A model generated the notes under the pieces. That model was not told the origin of the DNA. It was given only the letters and a program-made list of their open reading frames with translations, and made no database searches. Shown here one piece after another: positions 15,219-34,562 of a DNA stretch of 64,000 nt (the stretch's first letter is position 1; each line of letters begins with the position of its first letter). The position numbers and the translations under genes are program-made. The DNA lies in assembly GCA_000146045.2 (NCBI GenBank), contig BK006939.2:416001-480000 (forward strand), written 5' to 3'. This DNA comes from TPA_inf: Saccharomyces. Lineage: Eukaryota.

Positions 15219-15507
15219 TAGATCATTTATCTTTCACTGCGGAGAAGTTTCGAACGCCGAAACATGCGCACCAACTTTCACTTCTACAGCGTTTGACCAA
15301 AATCTTTTGAACAGAACATTGTAGGGTGTGAAAAAATGCGCACCTTTACCGCTAGCCCAAGAGGGCACTACAAAATCTAGAGTTGTACTTCAAACGTACA
15401 TGTAATCACCTTGTATATACTCGAAAGAAAACATCAAGTTTCTGTATAAATATGAGTGAAAGCATAATCATACATTATCTTTTCAAAGATGAAGAGTGGG
15501 TGAATTT

Positions 15508-15822
15508 TGAGATAATTGTTGGGATTCCATTTTTAATAAGGCAATAATATTAGGTATGTAGAAAGTACTAGAAGTTCTCCTCGAGGATTTAGGAATCCAT
15601 AAAAGGGAATCTGCAATTCTACACAATTCTATAAATATTATTATCATCATTTTATATGTTAATATTCATTGATCCTATTACATTATCAATCCTTGCGTTT
15701 CAGCTTCCACTAATTTAGATGACTATTTCTCATCATTTGCGTCATCTTCTAACACCGTATATGATAATATACTAGTAACGTAAATACTAGTTAGTAGATG
15801 ATAGTTGATTTTTACTCCAACA
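15508..15822 (-). repeat. Solo Ty1/Ty2 delta LTR
   Basis: It begins TGAGATAATTGTTGGGATTCC and ends ...GATTTTTACTCCAACA. It is about 315 bp with no matching 5-bp target duplication. It lies about 290 bp upstream of the snR52 Pol III unit. Confidence 0.85.
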
Positions 15823-16494
15823 AAAGAATTACAGTCAGTGGCTGTTTGCTGACATTTCATTGCTTCCCTTACAACCTGATTTCCATTCGAGTTGAAAGGT
15901 TGAGAAAAATTGCAAGACTTCTCTCTCATCTACCTTCCCCTTTTCTTGAAGACAAGGTGAGAGACAATTTAGTACTAAAGCTTTTGCGGTTGTTATTCAA
16001 TTGAGGTAGATACCTGGCAAAACATTTCTTGTGAGCACAACCTCAATTAAAGTTAGACAAGTAGGTGCACTATTGGTTGCTTGTTGGCTCATCTCGTTGA
16101 GGAATGTAATAACTACTTGTTATTAACCTGTTTTTGTGCCATCTATAGTGGAGAGCTTATTGCAATTTGTTTTTTATTTCTTGACTGCATATATCAGTCT
16201 TTGACAGGCTGCATGGGGATGACAGTTAGAAACTAGCCAAATTACCCCTTATGTAGATAACAATCATTGCTTATTCGCTCTTCCCCCATTTTTTTTCTTG
16301 CTCTTGCTGTTTTTTCTTTTAGCGTTCGTTTCAAGGAACAAGAGAGGGAAAAAAAAATCAAAAGTAGAAAAGAAGAAGAAAAAAACAACGTAACACAAGT
16401 TAACACCACAACTGAAAAAAAAAATAAGAGGTGAACGAACGAGTAACTGGGGAGAGGAAAGCAGATTACCACAATATACATTCAAATTAAAGAA

Positions 16495-16671
16495 ATGGAC
16501 TCACAACCAGTTGACGTTGATAATATCATCGATAGATTATTGGAAGTAAGAGGATCTAAACCTGGTCAACAAGTTGATCTAGAAGAAAATGAAATCAGAT
16601 ACTTATGTTCGAAAGCCAGATCTATATTCATAAAGCAACCCATTTTACTAGAGTTAGAAGCCCCAATTAAA
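16495..16671 (+). CDS. GLC7: Protein phosphatase 1 catalytic subunit, exon 1 (59 codons)
   Basis: The translation [59 protein letters not shown] is followed directly by a GTATGT 5' splice site at 16672. Confidence 0.95.
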
Positions 16672-17196
16672 GTATGTTAATGTTGAACTTCGCAGTCAAG
16701 AGATAGAATGCCTAGAGCTTCAGGTGTTTTATGTGTTCTACTCCTGTTGCGGCAGTAAGATAGTTACAGCAGTTATTTCCGTTTGACTGAAAGAATTTAC
16801 CAAGCATCTGATGTTAGCCTACTCATATGTCGAGATAGCCGAGATAATGTGTGTGTTTAGCTCTTCATTTTTCTATCTTATTAGGCATTTTTTTACCAAG
16901 ATTTCCTTATGTTTTGTATCATCATCCGGCCGGCGCCTCCCATATTCAGAAAAATCCCCCTTGCTCACACTAAAAAAAGAAGGCATTTTTTCGTTATGAA
17001 GAAAACGAATCTTTTTTTTTTTTGAGCCCGAGAGAAAGGTCGGACGAAAACCAAGAAATGTGGATTTGCAGAAGGCATTGGGAGAAATGAAGCGTTTTTG
17101 ACAGCAGTAATTGTTCTCTTAAAGTCAACGGAATGAGCTAGATTTAGTGACAAATTCATTTACTAACTTATTTTTTTCTATTTTTTTTTTTTTTAG
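16672..17196 (+). other. GLC7: GLC7 spliceosomal intron, 525 nt
   Basis: The intron has GTATGT at 16672, a TACTAAC branch point at 17161-17167, a poly-T tract and a TTTTAG 3' splice site ending at 17196. Splicing joins ...APIK to [20 protein letters not shown], the conserved PP1 sequence. Confidence 0.95.
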
Positions 17197-17958
<762 letters not shown>

Positions 17959-18540
17959 ATAGATTCACGTCCTAAATCAAAGTTTAAAAAGGAAAATACT
18001 TATTAACAAGAAGAGTAGTAGAAGAAAAATACAAGAAACATAAACGTAGAAAACTTTTAGTCAATTCTTTAAGCGAAGAATACGAAAGAAACATCAAGAA
18101 AACAAAGGAAGATGCAATCATCACTCGTCATATACACAAATAATTCCCTTTAGTGCAACAAACCGCGAAAAAGCATAAGAAACATAAAAAAAATATAAAA
18201 AAAAGGAGATAATAATAAGATGTGAAGGATTTGAATTAGTGGAAAAATGATAAGTCTACACTATTATTATTAACGAAATGCAATTTTTCTTTATTTTCTT
18301 TTATTACTATTATCATTACTATTATTATTAGTATTATTATTTTTTTACTTATTTTTATATTAAACTATGTTAAATTACTATATTATTATTTTGTCTAACT
18401 CTATATTGAGGCTGTCTTTCGTTGCACTGTTAAGAATGGTCACGTCTTCCTTTGGCTTTGAACCCTTTTATAAACAAGTTGGCCAAATCATTTAGTCAAT
18501 CACGTCAACCTGTCTAAAATAAGACAGGTAAAAAAGAAAA

Positions 18541-18612
18541 TGCCATCTCCTAGAATCGAACCAGGGTTTCATCGGCCACAACGATGTGTACTAACCACTA
18601 TACTAAGATGGC
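18541..18612 (-). tRNA. tH(GUG)E2: tRNA-His (anticodon GUG)
   Basis: The minus strand reads GCCATCTTAGTATAGTGGTTAGTACACATCGTTGTGGCCGATGAAACCCTGGTTCGATTCTAGGAGATGGCA. It forms a cloverleaf with a GTG anticodon and contains A and B boxes. Confidence 0.9.
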
Positions 18613-18630
18613 GACTTTTCAATGGAGAAC

Positions 18631-18971
18631 TGTTGTATTACGGGCTCGAGTAATACCGGAGTGTCTTGACAATCCTAATATAAACAGTCTTAGGGAAGTA
18701 ACCAGTTGTCAAAACAGTTTATCAGATTAATTCACGGAATGTTACTTATCTTATATATTATATAAAATATGAATCATACTAAGTGGTGGAAGCGCGGAAT
18801 CTCGGATCTAAACTAATTGTTCAGGCATTTATACTTTTGGGTAGTTCAGCTAGGGAAGGCCGGGTTTTATCTCATGTTGTTCGTTTTGTTATAAGGTTGT
18901 TTCATATGTGTTTTATGAACGTTTAGGATGACGTATTGTCATACTGACGTATCTCATTTTGAGATACAACA
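18631..18971 (-). repeat. Ty3 sigma solo LTR (341 bp)
   Basis: It has the TGTTGTAT...ATACAACA termini and sigma consensus sequence throughout. A perfect 5-bp target duplication AGAAC flanks it (18626-18630 and 18972-18976). It lies 18 bp upstream of the tRNA-His 5' end, the classic Ty3 integration position. Confidence 0.9.
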
Positions 18972-19070
18972 AGAACCGTATCCTTATTTTGTACTTTTGT
19001 GTAAATATTTAATGAATTGTTTGAGCAATTACGAAATTGTTTGGAATCCAAAGGAATCTTCAGTAAATTT

Positions 19071-19128
19071 GTTGGAATAGAAATTAATTGGCTTCTATTA
19101 ATCAGTGCGTATGTTACTGGTATATTGG
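19071..19128 (+). repeat. 5' fragment of a delta-like LTR
   Basis: It begins TGTTGGAATAGAAATTAAT..., which is the 5' end of a delta in plus orientation, and is truncated after about 58 bp. Confidence 0.4.
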
Positions 19129-19135
19129 GAATGGG

Positions 19136-19466
19136 TGAACAATTTGAGACAGTTGTTGGATTCCATTGTTGTTAAAGGCTGCAATATTACGTAGAACGAA
19201 TATGCTGCAATTCTCCTCGAGAAAAAATAGGAATCTACAAAAGGCGAATCGATAGCTCTACATAATAATGTTACTTTATCTTCTTCCTTTTATACTTTGT
19301 CATTCTTTTTCTTATTACGTTATCAGTTCTTGCATTTCAGGTGCTATTATATTTGGTGACTATTTCTCAATCTCTATGACATCTTCTTATACCGTACGTG
19401 ATAATATAATAGTGATATGAATACCAGTCGATAGACGATAGTTAGTTGGGTTTTATTTAACAAATA
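19136..19466 (-). repeat. Diverged solo LTR of the delta/Ty1-Ty2 family (older subfamily)
   Basis: It runs GGGTGAACAATTTGAGACAGTTGTTGGATTCC...CTCGAGAAAAAATAGGAATC...GTGACTATTTCTCAATCTC...AGTTAGTTGGGTTTTATTTAACA. It aligns with delta in minus orientation at about 80-90% identity and is about 90% identical to the inverted copy at 26734. Confidence 0.6.
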
Positions 19467-19750
19467 GGTTCCCGAGAAAAAGTTCTAATATTTTCTATTT
19501 ACCCAATAGTACTACCCCATCAAATAATAGAATCATAGTAATTATCAGTAACAAAATATACAGCCCTCATCAGCAATGTAGTCTCAACAACTGCCCCCAG
19601 AATTCACCGCTTTTCTTCGATCGTCAATATGGAAGTGAGGAAACTCGGGCTCACTTAAAACGAACTGCATGTTTTAAAATCATTATCCATGCAAGTGTGG
19701 CATAAAAGCCGTAGTTAGATATATCTCAAACGCGCAAAAAGTTAAAAAGA

Positions 19751-19823
19751 AAGCCCTGTAGGGGGCTCGAACCCCTAACCTTATGATTAAGAGTCATACG
19801 CGCTACCGATTGCGCCAACAAGG
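19751..19823 (-). tRNA. tK(CUU)E2: tRNA-Lys (anticodon CUU)
   Basis: The minus strand reads GCCTTGTTGGCGCAATCGGTAGCGCGTATGACTCTTAATCATAAGGTTAGGGGTTCGAGCCCCCTACAGGGCT. The anticodon is CTT and the cloverleaf is standard. Confidence 0.9.
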
Positions 19824-19945
19824 CTCTTATTGTTGTTTTTCTGATTCTTATGGAGGGATTAGAGAGCAAAGTAAAGTACTTATATGTAATTTAACATTCG
19901 ATGAACCGCGGATAATTAGTAATATGAAATGGGTGATGTTCATAA

Positions 19946-20277
19946 TGTAGAGAATGTGGATTTTGATGTAATTGTTGGGATTCCATTGTGATTAAGGCTA
20001 TAATATTAGGTATGTAGATATACTAGAAGTTCTCCTCCAGGATTTAGGAATCCATAAAAGGGAATCTGCAATTCTACACAATTCTATAAATATTATTATC
20101 ATCGTTTTATATGTTAATATTCATTGATCCTATTACATTATCAATCCTTGCGTTTCAGCTTCCATTGAAAACGATGACTATTTCTCATCATTTGCGTCAT
20201 CTTCTAACACCGTATATGATAATATACTAGTAACGTAAATACTAGTTAGTAGATGATAGTTGATTTTTATTCCAACA
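19946..20277 (-). repeat. Solo delta LTR (about 332 bp)
   Basis: It begins TGTAGAGAATGTGGATTTTGATGTAATTGTTGGGATTCC and ends ...GATTTTTATTCCAACA. It is nearly identical to the delta at 15508 and lies about 120 bp upstream of the tRNA-Lys 5' end. Confidence 0.85.
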
Positions 20278-20605
20278 CATAATTAGAATTTAAAAGGCAG
20301 TATTGGTGAAGATTGAACATTAATTTTCTTATGCTTATATAATAGAGGTATGAACACACGCATATAGGATCATTATATAGTTATGGCTAGTATTATCATG
20401 GCTCTGGTAATTTCATACATTTGATGTCGTCACGACTCATATTATTTGCTCATATATATAACTTCCTCATATATATAACTTCCTCATCAAGTTCAATTAA
20501 TAGATCTTTAGTTCAAATTCAGAACATTCTGAATTTGTCGTTTAACATTTCCTTCTGCAAGAGTACATTCACACTGGAACGTATACGAGGTGTAAATTGG
20601 TATAC

Positions 20606-20790
20606 TGTTGGAATAAAAACCAACTATCGTCTATCAAGCGAGGCGCTGAAATCCTACTATTCGCTCGAAAGACCGCTGAACGCAGGAGATTCTTTTTTGA
20701 TCTTGAATATCATTTGAGTATTTTTGTTCTACATTCTAGTTTTAGGAAAATCATCAATCTATGGCAGGAATCAATAGTGTTGGAATAAGA
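20606..20790 (+). repeat. Fragment of a tau/delta-like LTR
   Basis: It begins TGTTGGAATAAAAACCAACTATCGTCTATCAAGCG... and a second TGTTGGAATAAGAAATG follows at about 20776. It is truncated. Confidence 0.35.
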
Positions 20791-21266
20791 AATGCATATT
20801 TGCCTGCGAAAAAAAGTTATTCTTTTTTTTTGGTTAACGTAGTTAAACTACTCTGTTAAAAATAATGGGTTAAGGTTCATGTTCGTCACATAATGTTTCG
20901 TACACTTAAAATTCAAACGCTATCAGTAGCATTACAACGTGTATGAAGATCATTGGAGAAAAGCAGATGGTTAAGAGCTTCTTGCACTGAAATTTGAAAA
21001 TATTTGTCTGAACTTAGTAGTGAAAAGTGGTGAATGAACCAGGTTTTTATACATAGATATATGGTTAAGTTATGAAAACTCTTTTTGGAAGAACAAATTA
21101 GTACAAAGGCTGAGGCGGATTGGTTAAAGTTTTTAAATTAAAAGTGAGCTTCTATTTTGATAAATCACAAATATATAATTTTTAACAGTGATGTATCATC
21201 TTCCCATAAATGTAATGACTTCTTCTTATGCTCAGATGATGCTCTGTGAACTAAGTGCGCAGTCCT

Positions 21267-21803
21267 TCAAACCTTTCCACTCAGGTAATCTTGATAAAGT
21301 TTCCAAGATGGTCCATTCTCTGGGTCTCTTACATAAACAAACTTCACTCCGTATTTCTCCACTTCTTTGTTTCTACTTTCATCATCAAATAAACAAATCT
21401 TTTTCGATTTTAAATCGCTGGTATTATAAAGATCTTTCAAACCGTCCCTTAAATGGCCAATTTTACTTCTTTCTCCCCACTGAAATTCATCGAACAGGTT
21501 GGCCAACGGGGTTACGACACCAGCATACTTGACCTTGAATATTTTCAGTATTTCCTGGGCAATCTCAGGTGCCCACGTTCGTGACGCGGTCATTAACTTA
21601 ACTCCATTATCTTTAAGATCACCTAGTATACGTGGGATATCTTTGTAGATTGTGAGCTCGTAACCATCTCTACATATAATTGTGAGAACTTCGCCATTAC
21701 TACTTTTAACTGGCTTAAAGGGACCGTGCAAATGGGTATCACAATAGCAGGGCCAAATGGTGTAGTCCAAATCGAAGGCGGCCACGTCAGGGTATCCAGT
21801 CAT
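21267..21803 (-). CDS. YER134C: Mg-dependent acid phosphatase of the HAD superfamily, 178 aa
   Basis: The first ATG (CAT at 21801-21803) gives [19 protein letters not shown]..., which carries the HAD motif I sequence DLDYT and totals 178 aa. The track start at 21845 is a TTG. Confidence 0.8.
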
Positions 21804-21951
21804 AATAAACGCGTTGAGACTATTTTGGAGCAGGATTTGTAACAAAATTGTTCTCTTTGTAAGTTTAAGGACAAAAATGCTTGTTTCTCGAGAAGGTCTC
21901 CTTTTCGGCAGGTCCTTCTTCTAGTGCGTGAAAAATATTCTACTCAATCCC

Positions 21952-22344
21952 TTAGTATTCTTTGTAAACAATACACTTTAAAGAAATATGAATGCTTATC
22001 TGCTTTTCAACAATCATTTTAGAGTTCTTATTCACTGAGGTGCGAATGGGTACGAAATTTGTTTCAGGAGAATTTAGCTTGTTGCACACAAATTTCTGCC
22101 ATTTATATCTGCAAGATCTGTTTCCCTCTTTCCAACTAGCGAGGCATATTAGAAAAAGAGTGAATAGTAACTTGTGTAAGTTTTGATGTAACGGTAGTAT
22201 AGAGTACCTATAATATTCGCCGATTATATTCTCAAAACTTGTAAATAACGCCATGTCACCGTATGGAGAAAGTGCTAACCAAATTGTAATATCGACCAAG
22301 ACCTTTTTCTGTGAATTATGTAAGTTTCTTAAAGTCCATGTCAT
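21952..22344 (-). CDS. YER135C: Dubious 130-aa ORF with no recognisable domain
   Basis: The ORF starts with ATG but lies in an AT-rich intergenic region. The only support is that it corresponds by position to a listed dubious ORF. Confidence 0.25.
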
Positions 22345-22499
22345 GCTTGAAAGATTTTAATCAACCTTGCATTTGTGGTCGTTAAACTCAAAGGGGATAT
22401 TCAAACGACAATCGACAACTAACTTCGAATAAACTAAGATTCACTTTATTGGGATATAATCAATTACCCTTCATTAAGTGGTGTATATGTTCCTGACGT

Positions 22500-22640
22500 A
22501 TTGTCATTTTCGGGATAAGAGGTTTGATGACTATTTCTCGATTTTCATGTCATCCTCTTTACACCGTACGTGATAATACACTAATTACACGATATAACTG
22601 AGCAATGATATTTTAGAGCTTCATCTCCACAATTTCATGT
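22500..22640 (-). repeat. Fragment of a diverged delta-type LTR
   Basis: The sequence GATGACTATTTCTCGATTTTCATGTCATCCTCTTTACACCGTACGTGATAATACACTAATTA matches the 3' portion of the diverged LTR at 19136. It lies about 80 bp upstream of tRNA-Val. Confidence 0.4.
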
Positions 22641-22699
22641 GTAAATCTTAAGAATTGTAGATATATTCTATTTTTTAATGAAACTTTTTCAACAAATTA

Positions 22700-22773
22700 G
22701 GTTTCGTGGTCTAGTCGGTTATGGCATCTGCTTAACACGCAGAACGTCCCCAGTTCGATCCTGGGCGAAATCA
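22700..22773 (+). tRNA. tV(AAC)E1: tRNA-Val (anticodon AAC)
   Basis: It reads GGTTTCGTGGTCTAGTCGGTTATGGCATCTGCTTAACACGCAGAACGTCCCCAGTTCGATCCTGGGCGAAATCA with an AAC anticodon. It is followed by a T-run terminator. Confidence 0.95.
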
Positions 22774-23615
22774 ATTTTTTTTTTCGAAAACGTTATAATT
22801 TACGTTAATTTACAAAGGGCATTCCTTTCATACTAAGCAATGTTTACTTCCAATCTCTTGAGACATCTTCGAAACTAGTTGAAAAGAGACAAATCCGCTT
22901 AATAACTAATAGTTACAAGAATGGCCAATCAAACTCTTGCCAAGCGATACAAGCTTTACAATCCTGTAACAAAAACATACTTTTAGCGGTTCCGACGGTA
23001 TTCTTCTTTTTCTCCATATATTTTGCTTATGTTGGCTACTTTAAAATAATTACCGCTTCCCCCACCAGAAACTAAACATGAGCTAAAGGCGCAAAACTTA
23101 AAAAATTACATAGCCAAGACTGTTTTCAAGAAAAAAATATCAGACCACATTTGATAAAGTACATACCTCTGTTAACTCCCGTAATACACCCATATTCTTG
23201 TACTTTCTACAATCTATCACTCAAACTTCTCTATTATCCAACATCTGCTGTTGCATAGTAAAGTAGGCCGTAAACGCTCAAAACCGTTATCTTTAGGTTA
23301 CCCTTATGTTTGAATCGTTTATCTCACATTGGCGGTGTTTTCCCCTCTCCTGTGGGCTCCAAAATCTTGGCCGTGGGAAGCTTCAGCGAGGGATTGTAGA
23401 TGTAGTTTCAACACGTCGGCTGATTTATCCCGATTTTGTTAGTAGAAAAGGTTCTACTTCATTCTTGCTTGAGACGTCGTCCCATCAAATTTCTAACATA
23501 GTCTTTTTTCAAGGAAGGATATTTTTCAAAGCAGGACTGCAATTAGTCTTTTCCTTTTCTTTACTCCCCTTCCATCATAACTGTTAGTGAATAACCACTT
23601 ATATAGCATAACACA

Positions 23616-24971
23616 ATGGATCAAGAAACAATAGACACTGACTACGACGTGATTGTCTTAGGTACCGGTATTACCGAATGTATCTTATCTGGTTTACTCT
23701 CTGTAGATGGAAAAAAGGTATTACATATTGACAAGCAAGACCATTATGGTGGCGAAGCTGCTTCTGTGACCTTATCTCAATTGTATGAAAAATTTAAACA
23801 AAATCCGATCAGTAAAGAGGAACGGGAGTCCAAGTTTGGTAAAGATAGAGATTGGAATGTCGACTTAATTCCTAAATTCCTGATGGCCAATGGTGAGCTG
23901 ACAAATATTTTAATACATACCGATGTGACCAGATATGTCGATTTCAAGCAAGTTTCTGGCTCCTACGTTTTTAAGCAAGGCAAAATTTACAAAGTGCCAG
24001 CTAATGAAATAGAAGCCATTTCATCGCCATTGATGGGTATTTTTGAAAAACGTAGAATGAAGAAATTTTTAGAATGGATTAGCTCTTACAAAGAAGATGA
24101 CTTGTCCACTCATCAAGGATTAGACTTAGACAAGAATACCATGGATGAAGTGTATTATAAATTTGGGTTAGGCAATTCTACCAAAGAATTCATCGGTCAT
24201 GCAATGGCTTTATGGACCAATGATGACTACTTACAACAACCTGCTAGGCCATCGTTTGAGAGGATTTTGTTATATTGCCAAAGTGTTGCCCGTTACGGTA
24301 AATCACCTTATTTGTATCCTATGTATGGGTTAGGCGAACTTCCACAAGGATTTGCTCGTTTGTCGGCTATTTACGGTGGTACTTACATGCTAGACACTCC
24401 AATTGATGAAGTATTGTATAAAAAAGACACAGGAAAATTTGAAGGGGTCAAGACTAAGCTGGGAACTTTCAAGGCCCCATTGGTTATTGCTGATCCAACT
24501 TATTTTCCCGAAAAATGTAAATCTACTGGTCAAAGAGTTATTAGAGCCATCTGTATTCTTAACCATCCAGTTCCGAACACCAGTAACGCGGATTCTTTAC
24601 AAATTATTATCCCACAAAGCCAACTGGGAAGGAAAAGCGATATATACGTTGCGATTGTTTCAGATGCGCATAACGTTTGCTCCAAGGGTCACTATTTAGC
24701 AATTATTTCTACAATCATTGAAACTGATAAACCACATATAGAATTAGAGCCTGCTTTCAAACTTCTGGGACCAATCGAAGAAAAATTCATGGGAATTGCC
24801 GAATTATTTGAACCAAGAGAAGACGGCTCTAAGGATAACATTTACTTATCCAGATCATACGACGCATCCTCTCATTTCGAATCCATGACTGACGATGTTA
24901 AAGATATTTACTTCAGAGTAACAGGCCACCCATTAGTTCTAAAACAAAGACAAGAACAAGAAAAGCAGTAA
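23616..24971 (+). CDS. GDI1: Rab GDP-dissociation inhibitor, 451 aa
   Basis: The protein MDQETIDTDYDVIVLGTGITECILSGLLSVDGKKVLHIDKQDHYGGE carries the GDI/REP dinucleotide-binding fold. The ATG is at 23616. Confidence 0.95.
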   Translation: MDQETIDTDYDVIVLGTGITECILSGLLSVDGKKVLHIDKQDHYGGEAASVTLSQLYEKFKQNPISKEERESKFGKDRDWNVDLIPKFLMANGELTNILIHTDVTRYVDFKQVSGSYVFKQGKIYKVPANEIEAISSPLMGIFEKRRMKKFLEWISSYKEDDLSTHQGLDLDKNTMDEVYYKFGLGNSTKEFIGHAMALWTNDDYLQQPARPSFERILLYCQSVARYGKSPYLYPMYGLGELPQGFARLSAIYGGTYMLDTPIDEVLYKKDTGKFEGVKTKLGTFKAPLVIADPTYFPEKCKSTGQRVIRAICILNHPVPNTSNADSLQIIIPQSQLGRKSDIYVAIVSDAHNVCSKGHYLAIISTIIETDKPHIELEPAFKLLGPIEEKFMGIAELFEPREDGSKDNIYLSRSYDASSHFESMTDDVKDIYFRVTGHPLVLKQRQEQEKQ

Positions 24972-25372
24972 ATTCATACCTTTACGACTAAAGCAGCAAT
25001 TGGAGGGTAAACTTATTTTTTCCGATAATGTTCTTGGCAAATGAGTTACCAATAAATGACATGAATTACAGAAAACAAGAAAATATTTGCCAAAAAAAAA
25101 CCAATACAAAAATATAGGGGAAAAGATTATCCTTTATTCCTTTCTCATTCCACTTTTTTTTTTTGTTATATGCGTATTCTGATTGATTCATAACTAAGTA
25201 TCTTTCCTTTTCTTTTCTTTCAATTTCTTTTTTCCATATATAAATACATAAATTTACATACCTTATGTAGTATAATATATGGAAGAATGCTACTGAACAC
25301 ATCAGTACACATGCTATGTACTTACAATCTTAGTAAGGTAGATGTAGGTCTAATGCTTCGATGATCCCTTCA

Positions 25373-25819
25373 TTATTTCTTGGGTATAACTGTCAGTCTC
25401 GCACCGCAGTGTGCCCTTGTGTGGCCAGCCTCGTGACAAAATGAACATTTTATCTTATTTTTTTTCTTTTTACTACTCTTTTTGCTGGTTACTCCCTGAA
25501 TAGTGCTCGTAGTTTTATCTGCCTCTTCCTTGGCTTTAATCGGTATCAGGGCATATTTTTGATCGTCTTTTTCCATGATCTCTATTCCATTCCGCAGTAC
25601 CATGTCAAGAACACTAGTATTCATCATACTTCCCACAGTGCTTTCATGCAATCCCAGTAGTAGGTTAATGAATTTCTCTAATTCTTTCAACTTATGCTCG
25701 TACTCAACTTGTAATTGTGATCCATCTTTTTGCTTTGAAATGATCAACTTAGCCAGGACATCCATAGCTTGTGACAATCTGACTATATCATTTTCAGTCT
25801 TATTTGATGATTCACACAT
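25373..25819 (-). CDS. YER137C: Uncharacterised 148-aa protein with a C-terminal CCHC zinc knuckle
   Basis: The start is an ATG (CAT at 25817-25819). The C-terminus has [14 protein letters not shown], a CX2CX4HX4C zinc knuckle, and a Lys-rich stretch. Confidence 0.65.
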
Positions 25820-25986
25820 TCCTTGTTATAACAACCCTCGGTATTCTTTTAACAAACTTACGATGACTATATTGTATTAGTGTCAACCTCATCGCCAGGA
25901 ACTTTTCATTGAAAATCTTCTGACAAATTTTCTGTGTAAAGGAAAGAAAATGGAGTATAAAATCGAAAGTTTATTCCAATTGTGCT

Positions 25987-26508
25987 AGGCTGTAATGGCT
26001 TTCTGGTGGGATGGGATACGTTGAGAATTCTGGCCGAGGAACAAATCCTTCCTCGCGGCTAGACACGGATTGCACGCCCTTTGGGCAAGGGATAGTTCTC
26101 TATTCCGCACCGTGCCCTGTTGTGGCAACCGTCTTTCCTCCGTCGTAAATTTGTCCTGGGCAGAGCTGTCTGCCCGGAGGCGGGAGAGTCCGTTCTGAAG
26201 TGTCCCGGCTATAATAAATCGATCTTTGCGGGCAGCCCGTTGGCAGGAGGCGTGAGGAATCCGTCTCTCTGTCTGGTGCGGCAAGGTAGTTCTGGGTCCT
26301 TAGGGGCTCCACCTTCACCGCTGTTAGGGGAGTTTTATCCAGCGTCAGCAAAGGTGACCCGTGATGGAGGCGGCCGGGATAGCACATATCAGTCGGATAA
26401 TTGTGCAAGTTGATCGCTTCGGCGGTTTAATTTGGCGGTGCCATCAGGATTTACTCGCACATTGTGGCCGTTCCCTCGGGGATGGAGTGTGTCCTGAACC
26501 ATATTTTT
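25987..26508 (+). ncRNA. SCR1: Signal recognition particle RNA (scR1), 522 nt, transcribed by Pol III
   Basis: A GC-rich island begins AGGCTGTAATGGCTTTCTGGTGGGATGGGATACGTTGAGAATTCTGGCCGAGG..., which matches the known scR1 5' end, and ends in a T-run at about 26503-26508. Its structured, GC-rich composition is atypical for yeast intergenic DNA. The ORFs called inside it are artefacts. Confidence 0.9.
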
Positions 26509-26733
26509 TAACATTTTTTTGAACTAATTAACCGTCCCAATGAGGGATGTTGGAAGAGTAAGTTGATTTAATGTCCTATTCTTGTTCTTTTCGAATATAA
26601 ATGACGATTGGAAGGTGCATGTCAATGTTTATCATCATGTTCTTGTTGTAGGTAGTCCTTACCTTGGTTGTAGAGTGAGTAGCGACAGGCGGCAGCGGAA
26701 TATAAGAAGGATAAAATGAGAATACTTAGAACG

Positions 26734-27063
26734 TGTTGAAAGAAGAATAAACGATCATCCATCGACTAGTACTGCTGCTACTAGTGTGCTGTCATACTAC
26801 TAATATATTATCATATACAATATAAGAAGATGTCATAAACATTGAAAATAGTCATCAAATCTAATGGAAGCTGAAATTCAAGGGTTGATAATGTAATAAA
26901 ATAAAGAATGACAAAGTATAAAAGGAAGAAGATAGAGTAACATTATTATGTAGAGCTATCAATTCGCTTTTTGTAGATTCCTATTTTTTCTCGAGGAGAA
27001 TTGCAGCATATTCGTTCCACGTAATATTGCGGCCTTTAACAACAATGTAATTCCAACAATTAT
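26734..27063 (+). repeat. Diverged solo LTR of the delta family, inverted copy of the element at 19136
   Basis: It reads TGTTGAAAGAAGAATAAACGATCATCCATCGACTAGTACTG...CTCGAGGAGAATTGCAGCATATTCGTTCCACGTAATATTGCGGCCTTTAACAACAATG. The 3' boundary is uncertain and could extend to about 27110. Confidence 0.55.
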
Positions 27064-27201
27064 CTTAAAATTTGTCTATATTTTTAAAAAAGTATGAACA
27101 ATTACCAACATGTGGTACATATTGGAGGCCCGCAAAGCTGAGTTGGCATTCATTCATTCTTTAAGTTGAACAAAAAGACAAAAAGATTTTCAAAAAAAAT
27201 A

Positions 27202-27275
27202 TGGTCTCTAGCGGGATCGAACCGCTGATCCCCGCGTTATTAGCACGGTGCCTTAACCAACTGGGCCAAGAGACC
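27202..27275 (-). tRNA. tI(AAU)E1: tRNA-Ile (anticodon AAU)
   Basis: The minus strand reads GGTCTCTTGGCCCAGTTGGTTAAGGCACCGTGCTAATAACGCGGGGATCAGCGGTTCGATCCCGCTAGAGACCA with an AAT anticodon. Confidence 0.9.
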
Positions 27276-27370
27276 AAATTTTAATGAAATACTTTTACTG
27301 GAAAGAAGGTAACAAACCATGGAAGATGCTTTTCTACCACCCATGAAAGTCTGAGATTTTTATTAATGAT

Positions 27371-27396
27371 GTTGGAATAAAAATCAACTATCATCT
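27371..27396 (+). repeat. Left 26-bp remnant of a solo delta that was split by the Ty1 insertion
   Basis: TGTTGGAATAAAAATCAACTATCATCT is delta positions 1-27. It is followed directly by the Ty1 end. It continues at 33321 (CATCTACTAACTAG...) after the 5-bp duplication. Confidence 0.7.
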
Positions 27397-27755
27397 TGAG
27401 AAATGGGTGAATAATTAGATAATTGTTGGGATTCCATTGTTGATAAAGGCTATAATATTAGGTATACAGAATATACTAGAAGTTCTCCTCGAGGATATAG
27501 GAATCCTCAAAATGGAATCTATATTTCTACATACTAATATTACGATTATTCCTCATTCCGTTTTATATGTTTATATTCATTGATCCTATTACATTATCAA
27601 TCCTTGCGTTTCAGCTTCCACTAATTTAGATGACTATTTCTCATCATTTGCGTCATCTTCTAACACCGTATATGATAATATACTAGTAATGTAAATACTA
27701 GTTAGTAGATGATAGTTGATTTCTATTCCAACATACCACCCATAATGTAATAGAT

Positions 27756-30700
27756 CTAATGAATCCATTTGTTAGTTAATAGTTTAAATGTTTTTATCGG
27801 AAGAGGTTTTGTCATCACATCAGCAATGTTCTTCTTGGTCTCGATGTAGTATACGTATAAATTATTACCTGATACTTCATCTCTAAGTCTCATTGCCTTT
27901 GTGCCAAAAAATCTGTTTCTAAATTTCTCTTCATTTGTAGACTTAATTATACTGATCGTTGATCTACTATCAGTAAGTAAGCCTTTAATAATTGGTTTCT
28001 TGTTAAGTTCTTGTATCAGGTAACTTAGATTATTTAATAATGGGACAGATTCACTTATCGCGTGTATTTCTGCTTCCGTAGTTGAAGTACATGTTAATGA
28101 AGCCTTGGTGGACTTTCCTCCAATTACCTTTCCATTAAGTAAATATATGTTGCCAATTTGTGATTTATAATACGGTTGGTTGCCATACGAAGCATCACTT
28201 ATTGCGACTAGTTTATTATCTGGCTCGGTAGGTTTGTTTTTGTGCCATATCAGTTGTTTATCTCTAGTGTCCCACATGAATTGTATCAACTCATATGTCA
28301 TGTCTAAAACTTGCCTAGAGGGGAATAGTATATGTTGAGCAAGTGTGTTGATGTAGTATAGTAAGTCAAATCTAAATTTATATCCAACATATGAAGCTAG
28401 ACCAATCAACTTTTGCATTTCATGTACCTTCTCTTTGTATTCATCTTCATCTATTTCTAGTTCATCCTGGTCTATATAAAGACCTGGTTGACCTGGAGCG
28501 CTAAGTTTTCTTCCTTTTGGATTCAAAGGTACGTTTAATTTGGGTATTTTCTCAGTTAATGAGTTTTCCATACCTAATTTCATGTATTTACCTCTTTGAT
28601 ATTTGATTTCTAAGCCAAGTATGTCGTACTGAATTTCGTTATCACTTTCACCCAGATTTATTATCTTTGTATCGTATTGTTTCTTGAGTGTTGTTATGAT
28701 TTTCTTATTTGCATTTAAGTCTTTGCTGAATAAAATCATGTCGTCAACAAATAAACATATTGTTACTTGACTATTCTTAAATACGCATGACCATCCACGA
28801 ACTTCTTCCATACCACACTGTTTTATCAGGTATGATTTGATAGTTTCGTACCAGTTCGCTCCACTTTGTTTCAATCCATAAAGTGATTTCTTCAAACGTA
28901 TCAACTTATCATTCATTCCTAAATGTGGTGGAGGTCTTATGTATAATTCTTCTTTGATGTCTGCATACAAATATGCCGAAGATATGTCTAATTGTGTAAT
29001 ATAGTAGTTATTGTCTAATGCAAGTGACAGGGATGTCATTAATGCATAGTGATGTACGGTATTGGATTGCATGCCTGAGTCGTAAGTGTCAGGATGCTGA
29101 ATATCACCTCTTGCAACAAATCTAGCTTTATGAGTACCGTCACGTTTCTTGTTGAAGATAAACATTGAGTTTATTACTCTTTTAGGGTCTATTTCTTTTC
29201 TGTCATAATATTCGTCAGTGTCCCAAGTTTTCATCTTCAACAGTTGATTGACTTCTTTGTGGTATGCCTCGATATATTTTTCTTTTTCTTTAATATCTTT
29301 ATTATAGGTGATTGCCTCATCGTATCGTAAGGTTGTCCGTATTGGTTTGATTGATTTTACTGCTTTTACAGCTGCAATCAGGTGAATTCGTTTCTTCGAT
29401 CTCGGAGGTTCTAAACTACGCATATTCTTAGTATTCCATGTGTCTCGTGATACCTTAATTTCAGTTTCATTATCTTCTAATGATCTTTTCTTACTGTTGA
29501 TAGTAGTATAGGCATTAGAGTCACCAATACCACCCAAACTGGAATTAGTTTGATGAGAATTTATCGGTGGGAGTTCTTTAAATGGGTCAGGGAATTCGGT
29601 AGGAGATTCTGGAGGTAGATCAGGGAGTGGGAGATCAGCGATGATAGATTCCTCGGTATTCTGTTCAGAAACAGTAGTTGGCGTTTTGATAGGAACAATA
29701 TTGTGCGATGAATTATTTTCCGGTGGAGAAGCATCGATTGAAGGTGAACGGTGTATAATCCTTTTCTCAGTCTCTTGGTCACTTATCTGCGGAACAGTTT
29801 TGTTGTTGGTACCACCCGTACTGGATATTGGTACGTTTGTATGATTAGTCTCATTTTCACTGTACGAGTCTGAGTGTCTGAAATCTTTAGATTTACTGGC
29901 GTGCGACGACTCATGTGTGTTAGATTGGGACATGGGAGCAAGTAAAGGAACATTTAATTTATGCATACCACCCGAACCGGTACTCTCGATATTGGAAATT
30001 TGGGGGGTGCTAGATCTCTTCTTTGATGGAAGAATATTAGATTCAGATATGTTGGGGTCAACTTCTCTGGGTGCGCGAATATTGGTTTTAGAAACACGTT
30101 TCGAATCTTCAGTATGAGTTGACGGAGGTGTGGAATCGGTTGGACTCACAGCTTTTGAAAGGACATTTCTCGGTTGCTCAGGATGTAGTTCGATGTCAGA
30201 TTGGAAGTCATGGTCAGATTCTATGTTAAGATCATCGGATTGTTGGATCTCATTTGACGCAATGAACGATTGATATGAAGCAGTTAAACGGTTTAAGTCT
30301 TCATCGAAAGTGAGTGCGTCGTAATTGAATTGATCTAATCTGGATTCCTTGCCCTGAAGAATAACATAGTTAGTTGTATCTACTGTCTTCTTTAAGGATG
30401 GAAGATAGATGATATATCCATAAGAGTTTCGAGACGGATGTAGAGCGTAGCCTGGGATGCCACGAGGATGTATTTTGGAGTTAGGGTTGTGATCATTGAC
30501 GATAACAGGTTGACCGAAAGGTAACAAAGTACTGATATCAAGTCCTGCCAAGCCAGCATGTTGTCTTGCAGATTTTTTGCTTTTAGGTGAAGCTAGTGAA
30601 TTTCTCACAATAGTAGAAAATTCGATTGCAGAGAACCATAAATGGTTCGGTAAACCACTACATTGCAGTTGAGTACGGCAGTCATCTAATAAGGTACGGT

Positions 30701-31718
30701 TGAGCCGTTCAGCGACTCCATGTGCTCGGGAATCCGCTGTGGTTGTATAGCATGGAGTTATACCATTTTTTTCAAGGAATTTATGGAGAGTTCTGTTAGT
30801 ATACTCAGAACCACGGTCCATTTGTATAACCAAGACACTGGCCTGAAACTGGTTCTTAATAAAAGCTAGTATCGTAGTAAAAACATCGAGGATAGAGTCC
30901 TCGCGACGGTCGTGTAATGGATAAACCCAACGGAATTTTGTTGTCTCATCAGTAAATGAGATGAAATAGGATGGTGCACTTTTTGGTAGGTTGTGAACTG
31001 GACCAAATATGTCAGTATGTAGGTATTGAAAGGGTTCGTATGAATTTTGGTATTTTAGTCGTGAACCTTTGATATGTCTGTGTTTGGTGCTTTTGCCGAT
31101 TAAACAATCAGGACATTGATAGTCAATAGCACTAGACCAGTCGACATCTGATTCGTTAAAATACGTGATGGTGTTATTTTTAAGTGAGTATCGAATTGTC
31201 TGTGCATTGGCATGTGCAAGCATTCGATGAATGAAAGGATAAGGATATTTGCGTGTACTTTCACTTGTATGGACATTATTGATGGTGGGTACGGAGATAT
31301 TTGATGGAAGCAAGTACTTTTTAGATACCCAGTAAAAGTCTCCATATTTTACGATAGGTGCAAGTACAGTGCCGTCAGATCGTTCTAAGACGTTTTTGGT
31401 AAAGCATGCTGTGATATCTACTGCAGCCAATTCATTCAAACTGAGTAAGTCATAGGCTATGTTAGGAGTGTGCAATACCTTTATTGATGTTTTGGTGTTG
31501 TCCTGGAAGTGAAATTGTAGGTCACCAATAGCGTTAATTGGTATATTTCTTTTTTGAGCATCAACTACGTTTATGTCAGGATTAGATGATGCTGAGTGTA
31601 TGTGATGAGCAGATCTTATAAGGGTTCGTGATGCTCCTGAATCGAGAAGGAGGTGTCCAGGGAGTTCATCATCAGAATGATTAGTGTGATTTACCGTAGA
31701 TTCAGTAAGTTCCTGGCC
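27756..31718 (-). CDS. TYB: Ty1 Pol (TYB), expressed as a Gag-Pol fusion by a +1 ribosomal frameshift
   Basis: The frameshift heptamer CTT-AGG-C sits at 31716-31722 on the minus strand. The downstream frame is open for 1320 codons to the stop at 27756-27758. It contains the protease DSGAS motif, the integrase HHCC and DD35E motifs, and the RT/RNase H YVDDM motif. Confidence 0.9.
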
Positions 31719-33024
31719 TAAGGTGAAGGTCGTGCTTATTGTTCAATTGAATCGGTTCAGTAGTTGATTTACTGATGGAATCGTTGTCCGTGCTGGGAGA
31801 GTTATTAGATGTGGATACATTGTGAGCCCTGGCTGTTTTCGATTTCGAATTATTTGTTTTTTGAGGATTCCGAGCTATAACTTTGGGTTTGGTTGTATTC
31901 GTATAGCTGCGAGAATCATTCTTCTCATCACTCAGATTTCTCCTGTAATTAGGTTTGCTGTTTCTCGATCCCTGTTGTTCTTCATAAATAGCATGGATAT
32001 CTAAGAACAGTTCAGCGACTGTCATATTTAGATGTCGATGACGTGTGTAGCGTAAAAATTTATATTCGCCAGATAGACCTCTCATAATTAATTGGCATGC
32101 GACCTTGTTATTGATATGAATGCCATTATTGTTCAGTCTGTCGATAATGTTTGTGACTTTTGTTTCAAATGCATCTGCAGGTGTACTGCCATTATATTGC
32201 AAATTTGCCAGGGTCACAATGTCGTTTGCCTCTTGGGTATCAGATTGCATTTTTTCAATACTTTTGGAAAGAATTTTCATGATATCCGTATAATCAACGG
32301 ATAGGATGTCTTTGACCCAGGTAGGTAGGAATTGAGAGGGAGCAAATATTTGAAAAGTGTTATACAAGAAGGTGAGTTCATCATCAGTGATCTGACGTAC
32401 GGGTTTTCCGTTTACTGTCGGAATAATACCACCGAGATTCGAGTTTTGTAAAAATTTGATGTATGTTTTAACCCAATTTGGAAAGTCATTAGGTGAGGTT
32501 AACATTGGTGGTGGTCTGACATATTTTTTAGTGGATGTCATATCAGAGTCCGCTGAGGATGAATCAGTAAATGTATTACCTGACTCAGGTGATGGAGTGC
32601 TCAGAGGCGTTCCAACTGATGATGGATACTGCGGAAACTGTGATTGTGGCCCAGGTGGAAAGTACATAGGCGACATTTGATAAGGTGTATACGGAATCAT
32701 AGATGGGTGTCCGTAAAATGACCAACCAGATGGATTGGCTTGGTTTTGGGTCATCATGCACTGCTGTGGGTACGGCCCATTCTGTGGAGGTGGTACTGAA
32801 GCAGGTTGAGGAGAGGCATGATGGGGGTTCTCTGGAACAGCTGATGAAGCAGGTGTTGTTGTCTGTTGAGAGTTAGCCTTAGTGGAAGCCTTCTCACATT
32901 CTTCTGTTTTGGAAGCTGAAACGTCTAACGGATCTTGATTTGTGTGGACTTCCTTAGAAGTAACCGAAGCACAGGCGCTACCATGAGAAATGGGTGAATG
33001 TTGAGATAATTGTTGGGATTCCAT
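31702..33024 (-). CDS. TYA: Ty1 Gag (TYA), 440 aa
   Basis: The protein [42 protein letters not shown]... starts at an ATG inside the 5' LTR (CAT at 33022-33024). This is the typical Ty1 capsid protein. Confidence 0.95.
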
Positions 33025-33320
33025 TGTTGATAAAGGCTATAATATTAGGTATACAGAATATACTAGAAGTTCTCCTCGAGGATATAGGAATCCTCAAAAT
33101 GGAATCTATATTTCTACATACTAATATTACGATTATTCCTCATTCCGTTTTATATGTTTATATTCATTGATCCTATTACATTATCAATCCTTGCGTTTCA
33201 GCTTCCACTAATTTAGATGACTATTTCTCATCATTTGCGTCATCTTCTAACACCGTATATGATAATATACTAGTAATGTAAATACTAGTTAGTAGATGAT
33301 AGTTGATTTCTATTCCAACA

Positions 33321-33630
33321 CATCTACTAACTAGTATTTACGTTACTAGTATATTATCATATACGGTGTTAGAAGATGACGCAAATGATGAGAAATAGTC
33401 ATCTAAATTAGTGGAAGCTGAAACGCAAGGATTGATAATGTAATAGGATCAATGAATATTAACATATAAAACGATGATAATAATATTTATAGAATTGTGT
33501 AGAATTGCAGATTCCCTTTTATGGATTCCTAAATCCTCGAGGAGAACTTCTAGTATATCTACATACCTAATATTATAACCTTAATCACAATGGAATCCCA
33601 ACAATTACATCAAAATCCACATTCTCTACA
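33321..33630 (+). repeat. Right-hand remnant of the pre-existing solo delta interrupted by Ty1 (delta positions about 23-334)
   Basis: It reads CATCTACTAACTAGTATTTACGTTACTAGTATATTATCATATACGGTGTTAGAAGATGACGCAAATGATGAG...CACATTCTCTACA, which is the same delta subtype as the elements at 15508 and 19946. It runs opposite to the Ty1 LTR. Confidence 0.85.
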
Positions 33631-33699
33631 AATGAAGAAACTGCTTATAGTCAATTGAACGATTTACCGGTATTTTAACGCCATTATATATATTAGTAA

Positions 33700-33900
33700 A
33701 AAGATGGCGTATATTGATGGACTAACAGGGTCAAATAAAATCATGAATTGACTAGTATATACTTATAAGTATATCGTTCTACACAAACTAGGAAGATGAC
33801 ATACATGATGAGAATTGGTTATCAAATTCCATGGATGCCGAAACGTAAAAGATTTACTAAATAGTAGGATAATTATTGATAACATACAAAACAAAAAAAA
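33700..33900 (+). repeat. Highly diverged LTR-like fragment
   Basis: The segment GGAAGATGACATACATGATGAGAATTGGTTATCAAATTCCATGGATGCCGAAACGTAAAAGATTTACTAAATAGTAGGATAATTATTGATAACATACAAAAC parallels the delta core AGAAGATGACGCAAATGATGAGAAATAGTCATCTAAATTAGTGGAAGCTGAAACGCAAGGATTGATAATG at about 70% identity. Confidence 0.3.
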
Positions 33901-34562
33901 AAGAGACAATATTATTATCTAGAAGTGTCGACTTCCTTCTGTGGGTTTCCTATGTTCTCGAAGAGAGCTTCAAGTGTATTCTATAAACTAAGAATATTAG
34001 TTTAACGAAAGATCGAAGTCAGACACCTATCTAACTTTCATTAAATTATCACACAAAAATCCCACATACTCTCGTCTTGCTAAACAAATAATAAATTGAA
34101 GGTGAACGATTCTTCTTGCAGCGTCCTAGCTGTTGGGTCGTCTTAGATAAATATCTACTGTTCTGAATTGCCAAATTTTCCTTCTATTGTATCCATTCGA
34201 TGCTGGACGGCCAGTTCTACCGTTATTGCCCAAAAGGAAGGAACGTCGCGATACTTCAACACATTAAATACTTGTTGATTTTCGAACCAAAACTCTGAAG
34301 CAACACTTTCGTATATGGATGGCCCTTCAGAGAAACCAATAGGTATGTAAAGAATTGCTACGTGGTGACTCAAAGTGAATTATAGCAAAGTTATAAAAGC
34401 GCTACATTGTAGAAAATTGAGAACCACATTTTGACATACACGAATAACAGTATTTTTGTCCTGGCGCTGTAAAGTATTTTAAGTTATGATGATGAATTAA
34501 CTATTTTCAGCCAATGAAACGTCCATAATCTGTTCTGAATTTAGGTGCATTGATATAGCCGG

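Follow-up and report, generated by a model that had tools for sequence, protein, structure and literature searches.

The locus lies on the right arm of Saccharomyces cerevisiae chromosome V, within a window of 64,000 nucleotides (the whole stretch of DNA that was analysed). Subtracting 415,996 from sacCer2 chrV coordinates gives window coordinates, and all the published boundaries that we compared agree with this offset. The inverted repeat described here is flanked by open reading frames that we recognised from their translations and take to be Gdi1, Rtr1, Cox15, Mag1, Ddi1, Ubp5 and Ftr1. The locus itself comprises a tRNA gene, a Ty1 element of full length and a solo LTR that the Ty1 splits in two, and its features are listed here in window coordinates.

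27201-27276, minus strand: tRNA-Ile(AAU) gene (ARAGORN), the Pol III gene with both insertions upstream
27365-27369, no strand: left AATGA target-site duplication of the Ty2 insertion, with its second copy at 33631-33635
27370-27396, plus strand: left 27-bp fragment of the split solo LTR assigned to the Ty2 class, LTR positions 1-27, the last 5 bp being CATCT
27397-27733, minus strand: Ty1 3' LTR, 337 bp (443393-443729, "1-nested LTR", in File S3 of Carr et al. 2012)
27734-32983, minus strand: Ty1 internal region (gag, pol), chrV_i5-_TY1 = YERCTy1-1 in File S2 of Carr et al. 2012
32984-33298, minus strand: left arm of the inverted repeat, Ty1 5' LTR positions 23-337, 315 nt
33146-33298, minus strand: near-perfect core of the left arm, 153 nt, matching its partner at 151 of 153 positions
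33299-33320, minus strand: spacer, 22 nt, the first 22 nt of the Ty1 5' LTR, minus-strand sequence TGTTGGAATAGAAATCAACTAT
33321-33473, plus strand: near-perfect core of the right arm, 153 nt, beginning with the 5-nt right-hand CATCT copy of the duplicated Ty1 target site
33321-33630, plus strand: right arm of the inverted repeat, the 310-bp right fragment of the solo LTR assigned to the Ty2 class = YERWdelta20B
33631-33635, no strand: right AATGA target-site duplication of the Ty2 insertion, matching the left copy at 27365-27369

A repeat finder returned the two core arms, 33146-33298 and 33321-33473, as 153 nt of 99% complementary sequence with 22 nt between them, together with three weaker outer segments that extend the symmetry of the core. 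Across the 64-kb window this pair was the sole short-spacer inverted repeat of at least 25 nt. When the full arms, 32984-33298 (315 nt) and 33321-33630 (310 nt), were compared in a gapped alignment, 283 of the 317 columns matched (89.3%), with identity falling from 59/60 in the innermost 60 nt and 151/153 (98.7%) in the inner 153 nt to 80.5% in the outer 164 columns. The core contains two mismatches, one (A vs G) at 33277/33342, 22 nt from the spacer, and the other at 33159/33460, 140 nt from the spacer. GC content is 29.6% in the core, which is AT-rich, and 6/22 in the spacer. A sequence-only reading of this DNA had proposed an inverted LTR repeat of about 300 bp with a 22-bp spacer, and both the repeat finder and the gapped alignment bear this out; the overall identity lies above the floor of 75% that had been set for a self-alignment, and the central core looked for is there. 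The same reading had put the outer arms at about 80-85% identity, in agreement with the value measured, and had noted a single difference in the innermost 60 bp, which is correct, although it understated the size of the core by stopping at 60 bp of a stretch that is near-identical for 153 nt. The left edge that it gave for the LTR, 32987, was wrong by 3 bp, the Ty1 5' LTR beginning at 32984.

The Ty1 element, YERCTy1-1, occupies 27397-33320 on the minus strand (5,924 bp), with gag at 31702-33024 (440 aa) and pol at 27756-31475, and its 337-bp 5' LTR matches the 3' LTR at 334 of 337 positions, the LTRs having TG...CA ends. It is flanked by exact 5-bp copies of CATCT at 27392-27396 and 33321-33325, which correspond to positions 23-27 of the host LTR. 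With one CATCT copy dropped, the host fragments 27370-27396 and 33326-33630 join into a 332-bp LTR that is bounded on both sides by AATGA (27365-27369 and 33631-33635). The start of this LTR lies 93 bp, and the Ty1 insertion point 120 bp, upstream of the 5' end of the tRNA-Ile gene; the region upstream of Pol III genes is the usual target zone of Ty1 and Ty2. An empty site was present in two public metagenome contigs (ERZ794947 NODE-22 and ERZ794946 NODE-105, our L001 and L002), in each of which 27369 runs straight into 33631 across one AATGA, at ~99.9% identity; when reconstructed, the empty site aligned to public contig sequence over 1,935 bp without gaps. The locus thus carries the marks of a nested insertion: a full-length inner Ty1, a CATCT duplication derived from the host LTR, a host LTR that can be rejoined and an empty allele. 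These results, with both duplications intact, uphold the earlier proposal that the repeat was made by a Ty1 nested in opposite orientation within a pre-existing delta, and they confirm the boundaries on which it was based, a minus-orientation Ty1 5' LTR ending at 33320 and a plus-orientation delta directly after it.

LTR repeats are a classic source of misassembly, and the juxtaposition of the two arms might be an artefact of assembling repeated LTR sequence. We give this explanation almost no credence: both 5-bp target-site duplications are exact, the empty site falls base for base at the boundaries predicted, Chan & Kolodner independently amplified the junction region by PCR and sequenced it, and the element has been scored as present in both S288c and W303.

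The nested structure and its origin are already known and annotated in the literature. Carr, Bensasson & Bergman 2012 list the host LTR in File S3 as chrV_st71+_TY2, consisting of fragments 443366-443392 (27 bp) and 449317-449626 (310 bp), and list YERCTy1-1 (chrV_i5-_TY1) in Files S2 and S3 at 443393-449316, minus strand, as "1-nested" between the Ty2 fragments. All four of their boundaries map to the window with the one offset of 415,996, in base-exact agreement with ours. The right arm was described by Chan & Kolodner 2011 as an "unannotated partial delta", YERWdelta20B (ChrV 449316-449625 and 449317-449626), and Yadav et al. 2014 described a Crick-oriented Ty1 and a Watson-oriented YERWdelta20b at the locus. 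In the available text of these three papers the structure is treated as nesting or as homology in two orientations, and an explicit description of a quasi-palindrome with a 153-nt core and a 22-nt spacer was not found in that text. The inverted-repeat survey of Strawbridge 2010 reports only one reverse-orientation Ty/LTR pair within 76 bp; the YERCTy1-1/YERWdelta20B locus is not named in that survey, and the one-pair statement overlooks it. A bioRxiv paper that mentions YERCTy1-1 36 times deals with a transposed copy carried by strain YMV80 on chromosome III and not with the chrV locus.

The anatomy of the locus suggests the order in which it was built. A Ty2-class element integrated 93 bp upstream of the tRNA-Ile gene, duplicating AATGA, and would later have collapsed to the 332-bp solo LTR, probably by LTR-LTR recombination and probably before the Ty1 arrived. 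YERCTy1-1 then entered LTR positions 23-27 in the opposite orientation and duplicated CATCT, which put its 5' LTR head-to-head with the 310 bp that remained of the host LTR. The repeat has a 22-nt spacer because, in the host LTR, the stretch corresponding to the initial 22 nt of the Ty1 LTR was moved by the insertion to 27370-27391. Since the spacer is the start of the Ty1 LTR without an adjacent partner, its length equals the distance into the host LTR at which the Ty1 integrated.

At its 3' end the right arm reads ATGGAATCCCAACAATTACATCAAAATCCACATTCTCT, which encodes MESQQLHQNPHSL, a peptide that we take to be the start of a Ty2-type Gag. Along its entire length, the reconstructed host LTR shares 97.6% identity with YERCdelta16 and 95.2% with YERCdelta14. 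These are two other Ty2-class solo LTRs in the window (at 15490-15822 and 19946-20277), and they show the same mosaic when compared with the Ty1 LTR, with ~99% identity over LTR positions 1-168 and much lower identity beyond. YERCdelta14, YERCdelta16 and chrV_st71+_TY2 are all labelled as Ty2 LTRs by Carr et al. 2012. Judged by its nearest relatives and by its own label, the right arm is a Ty2-class LTR. Carr et al. 2012 place the host LTR in an "Active" (young) clade and score it and the nested Ty1 as each occurring in two of the 13 informative strains; by the order of their columns, we read the two carriers as S288c and W303, with absence in RM11-1a, SK1, Y55, K11 and others. The right arm, which had been called an old delta remnant from its sequence, is thus a young, polymorphic solo LTR of the Ty2 class.

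The identity of the two arms switches abruptly from 98.7% to 80.5% about 153 nt from the spacer, as might be expected if gene conversion or hairpin-templated correction had acted between the adjacent arms after insertion, and inverted-repeat survey work has suggested that perfection-increasing mechanisms exist in yeast (Strawbridge 2010). However, the unlinked YERCdelta14 and YERCdelta16 switch at the same LTR position relative to the Ty1 LTR, the similarity of the reconstructed host LTR to YERCdelta16 holds at 97.6% throughout, and the left 27-bp fragment, which lies outside the short-spacer repeat, is equally similar (26/27). Local homogenisation is unnecessary, since unlinked Ty2-class LTRs in the window carry the same mosaic; we consider it very improbable and, given that shared mosaic, rejected local gene conversion as the source of the core. 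On these alignments, the 99%/80% mosaic is a difference between the Ty1 and Ty2 LTR classes and not a product of events at this locus.

When the 647-nt region was folded as single-stranded DNA, we obtained -262.9 kcal/mol, compared to -49.4 +/- 4.5 kcal/mol for shuffled sequences (z = -48); the core hairpin alone gave -169.1 kcal/mol, and the two strands were equivalent in hairpin folding. Relative to the duplex, in contrast, two hairpins cost +31.5 kcal/mol at nucleation (opening of the spacer), +44.6 kcal/mol for the core and +229 kcal/mol for the whole arms, all of these being pairing-energy differences only, before any junction penalty. These costs would limit any cruciform to the core, and its formation would call for substantial negative supercoiling. 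Of the structures suggested, the hairpin is very stable on the single strand, whereas extrusion in the duplex DNA of wild-type cells is predicted to be weak, at a cost of at least +31.5 kcal/mol. According to this folding, formation of a hairpin or fold-back is plausible where the DNA is single-stranded, as in resection or under replication stress.

It has been proposed from sequence that the quasi-palindrome is an active break-initiating fragile site, at which cleavage of a cruciform, or of a hairpin formed on the lagging-strand template, sets off rearrangements. Such a site could also add to the chrV-R hotspot. We regard this as unlikely. The stability of the single-strand hairpin (z = -48) speaks for it, and the LTR promoters diverge, which by the twin-domain model would generate negative supercoiling at the centre of the repeat. 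The duplex energies speak against it, as extrusion is costly from the outset and does not spread beyond the core.

The engineered Alu quasi-palindromes of the Lobachev laboratory provide benchmarks, for which all figures given here are secondary statements in the available text of Ait Saada 2023 and Zhang 2013. These constructs have 320-bp arms, a 12-bp spacer and 100, 94, 86 or 75% identity between the arms. According to that text, lengthening the spacer from 12 to 20 bp reduced recombination ~40-fold, lowering the identity to 94%, 86% and 75% reduced wild-type GCR ~15-, 58- and 1,087-fold, respectively, and a single mismatch near the centre of the repeat also lowered activity. By these measures the 22-nt spacer, the mismatch 22 nt from the centre and the 89% identity of the chrV pair would each lower its activity, which argues against break initiation. 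Other statements in the same text favour it. The at-risk class of inverted repeats is said there to have arms of ~100 bp or more, a length exceeded here by both the core (153 nt) and the arms (310-315 nt); the 94% Alu repeats still yield a GCR rate of 5e-6 (41e-6 at 100%), and replicative polymerase depletion raises Alu GCR rates 6-34-fold; and in long single-stranded DNA, where divergence to 75% and spacers to 30 kb hardly matter, divergent repeats turn potent.

The chrV pair resembles the Alu constructs in its ~310-bp arms, short spacer and imperfect identity, and the same two routes would be available to it, breakage of a cruciform or hairpin and fold-back annealing in single-stranded DNA. 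It differs from them in having a spacer of 22 nt instead of 12, in being AT-rich (core GC 29.6%) and in the placement of its divergence, which is concentrated in the outer half (core 98.7%) and not evenly spread. The distal arm here, unlike that of the Alu constructs, presumably bears essential genes, such that its terminal loss would be lethal in haploids. From our analysis, we predict that the repeat is a weak at-risk motif in unstressed wild-type cells and that its likeliest mode of action is by fold-back annealing once the region has become single-stranded. The fragility ascribed to the repeat by the sequence-only reading is a generic extrapolation, plausible but probably overstated for wild-type cells.

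Among natural inverted repeats, HS3 and HS4 on chromosome IV are inverted Ty2/Ty1 pairs that act as spontaneous hotspots (St. Charles & Petes 2013), and FS2 on chromosome III is an inverted Ty1 pair (Lemoine et al. 2005). Their spacers measure 25-66 bp at HS4, ~100 bp at HS3 and ~280 bp at FS2, and HS4's activity as a hotspot was established by deletion and spacer expansion (St. Charles & Petes 2013). Since HS3 and HS4 are active with spacers of 25-100 bp, a spacer of 22 nt would by itself be no bar to activity at the chrV locus. Like these three sites, the chrV pair is a natural, strain-polymorphic inverted repeat derived from Ty elements, near a tRNA gene and with a short spacer. However, FS2, HS3 and HS4 each pair two full 6-kb elements, whereas the chrV locus has one full-length Ty1 opposite a 310-bp LTR fragment, so that its arms are 0.3-kb LTRs of which 153 nt are near-perfect; the 6-kb arms of the known sites count against extending their behaviour to this one.

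The role for which the locus is documented is different. In the Ty912 assay, 18 of 27 chrV-R duplications target the YERCTy1-1/YERWdelta20B region, and its standing as the main chrV-R rearrangement site might be taken to favour break initiation there. In isolate I15, the Ty912 5' delta was joined to the YERWdelta20B partial delta by a crossover within Ty912 positions 44-162, inside the near-identical core (Chan & Kolodner 2011). In isolate I14, Ty912 was fused to YERCTy1-1; the authors inferred an initial dicentric and proposed its resolution via YERWdelta17 or YERWdelta20B (Chan & Kolodner 2011). Three G4-induced GCR clones had a right-arm duplication boundary at the Crick Ty1/Watson YERWdelta20b (Yadav et al. 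2014), and a spontaneous V/XIII translocation at the locus and a UV-induced YERCTy1-1 x YERCTy1-2 deletion have also been published. In all of these mapped events the initiating lesion lay, or may have lain, elsewhere and the locus is the homology template; every one of them is explained by a break elsewhere, which argues against the repeat as an initiator. With delta homology present in both orientations at one point, the locus can serve monocentric as well as dicentric outcomes. What it is documented to do is act as a repair template in homology-driven events.

We conclude, with a probability of roughly 0.85, that the quasi-palindrome is a by-product of two successive Ty integrations that has no selected function, that it matters mainly as a repair template, and that its hairpin potential is predicted to be weak in the duplex DNA of wild-type cells. 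As such, it is a clean textbook case of inverted LTR pairs arising by chance from repeated Pol III-targeted Ty integration. The locus is already familiar to geneticists as a chromosome V rearrangement site, and the finding matters little alone. It seems to us distinctly unlikely that the repeat pauses forks or exposes single-stranded DNA enough to explain the approximately two-thirds of Ty912-assay chrV-R duplications that fall here, as a strain-specific (S288c/W303) fragile site of LTR size would. To our knowledge, an LTR-sized fragile site has not previously been described for delta elements. If the repeat did initiate breaks, the natural fragile inverted repeats of yeast would range from 6-kb Ty pairs down to LTR-sized arms, and this would bear on how chromosome V GCR assays, which use the S288c background, are interpreted.

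The nearest precedent of LTR size is T-403IR-C on chromosome VII (Paek et al. 2009, Beyer & Weinert 2016), where inverted Ty3 sigma LTRs of ~200 bp form a dicentric by fusion. Both sites have nearby inverted repeats of solo-LTR size within a tRNA/LTR cluster, and both take part in rearrangements; they differ in that the chrV repeats are delta and not sigma LTRs and in that dicentric fusion has been demonstrated for T-403IR-C alone. T-403IR-C was later argued to be a "collection site" for events begun elsewhere and not an initiator. This outcome at an analogous inverted-LTR site weighs further against break initiation on chromosome V, and the "collection site" caveat applies equally to the chrV pair.

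Besides the pair with the short spacer, insertion of the minus-strand element YERCTy1-1 into the Ty2-class solo LTR generated two more inverted pairs:

27369-27396 and 27707-27734, inverted: 27-bp left fragment of the split host LTR and start of the Ty1 3' LTR; 28 nt, 96% identity, 310-nt spacer (repeat search)
27397-27733 and 33321-33630, inverted: Ty1 3' LTR and the right arm (the larger host LTR fragment); ~5.6 kb between them

Since the Ty1 3' LTR, like the 5' LTR, is inverted relative to the right arm, the latter would have two possible partners under a single-strand fold-back model.

The two LTRs of a Ty element are identical at integration. When the 3' and 5' LTRs of YERCTy1-1 were compared, only three differences were found (27413, 27414 and 27416 vs. 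33000, 33001 and 33003), all of them clustered within 4 bp of U5. Read on the minus strand, the 5' LTR has ...TCTCAACATT... and the 3' LTR ...TCTAATTATT... at this site, which in the 5' LTR encodes Gag residues 7-9 (SQH). Because the LTRs start out identical and the differences are so tightly clustered, this pattern suggests a short conversion tract, with another element as donor, rather than independent point mutations.

Two contigs from separate ENA metagenome assemblies, ERZ794947 NODE-22 (121,695 bp) and ERZ794946 NODE-105 (45,317 bp), are long S. cerevisiae sequences with 99.7-99.9% identity to the region. Both lack the 6,261-bp Ty2-LTR/Ty1 block and are therefore non-S288c alleles of the locus. 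Both also carry a third delta, situated ~110 bp past the right arm and sharing ~69% identity with the Ty1 LTR:

33740-34039 (chrV 449736-450035), plus strand: highly diverged delta remnant, chrV_st72+_TY1

This remnant, which was labelled inactive and fixed in 25 of 25 strains by Carr, Bensasson & Bergman 2012, is the genuinely old delta of the locus.

In their genome-wide survey of inverted repeats with spacers of <77 bp, Strawbridge et al. 2010 (PMC2908449) gave YGRCTy1-3/YGRWTy2-2 as the sole pair of Ty elements or LTRs lying in reverse orientation ≤76 bp apart. That statement is contradicted both by the chromosome V inverted LTR pair, with its spacer of 22 nt, and by HS4, an inverted Ty pair on chromosome IV (25-66 bp).

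Upstream of the inverted LTR repeat is a dense Pol III/LTR cluster (15490-27276), in which solo LTRs of the delta, sigma and tau types (YERCdelta14-17, YERCsigma3 and YERCtau3) are interspersed among tRNA-His, tRNA-Lys, tRNA-Val and tRNA-Ile genes. The cluster has been described as the secondary translocation target in chromosome V's right arm (Chan & Kolodner 2012). A second composite occupies 19946-20637 within it:

19946-20277, minus strand: YERCdelta16, Ty2-class LTR (published annotation)
20279-20605: YERCtau3, Ty4 tau LTR, between YERCdelta16 and the delta fragment
20606-20637, plus strand: 32-bp delta fragment, head-to-head with YERCdelta16

Here, the repeat search of the window found that YERCdelta16 and the 32-bp fragment share an inverted repeat of 28 nt, its arms separated by a spacer of 328 nt.
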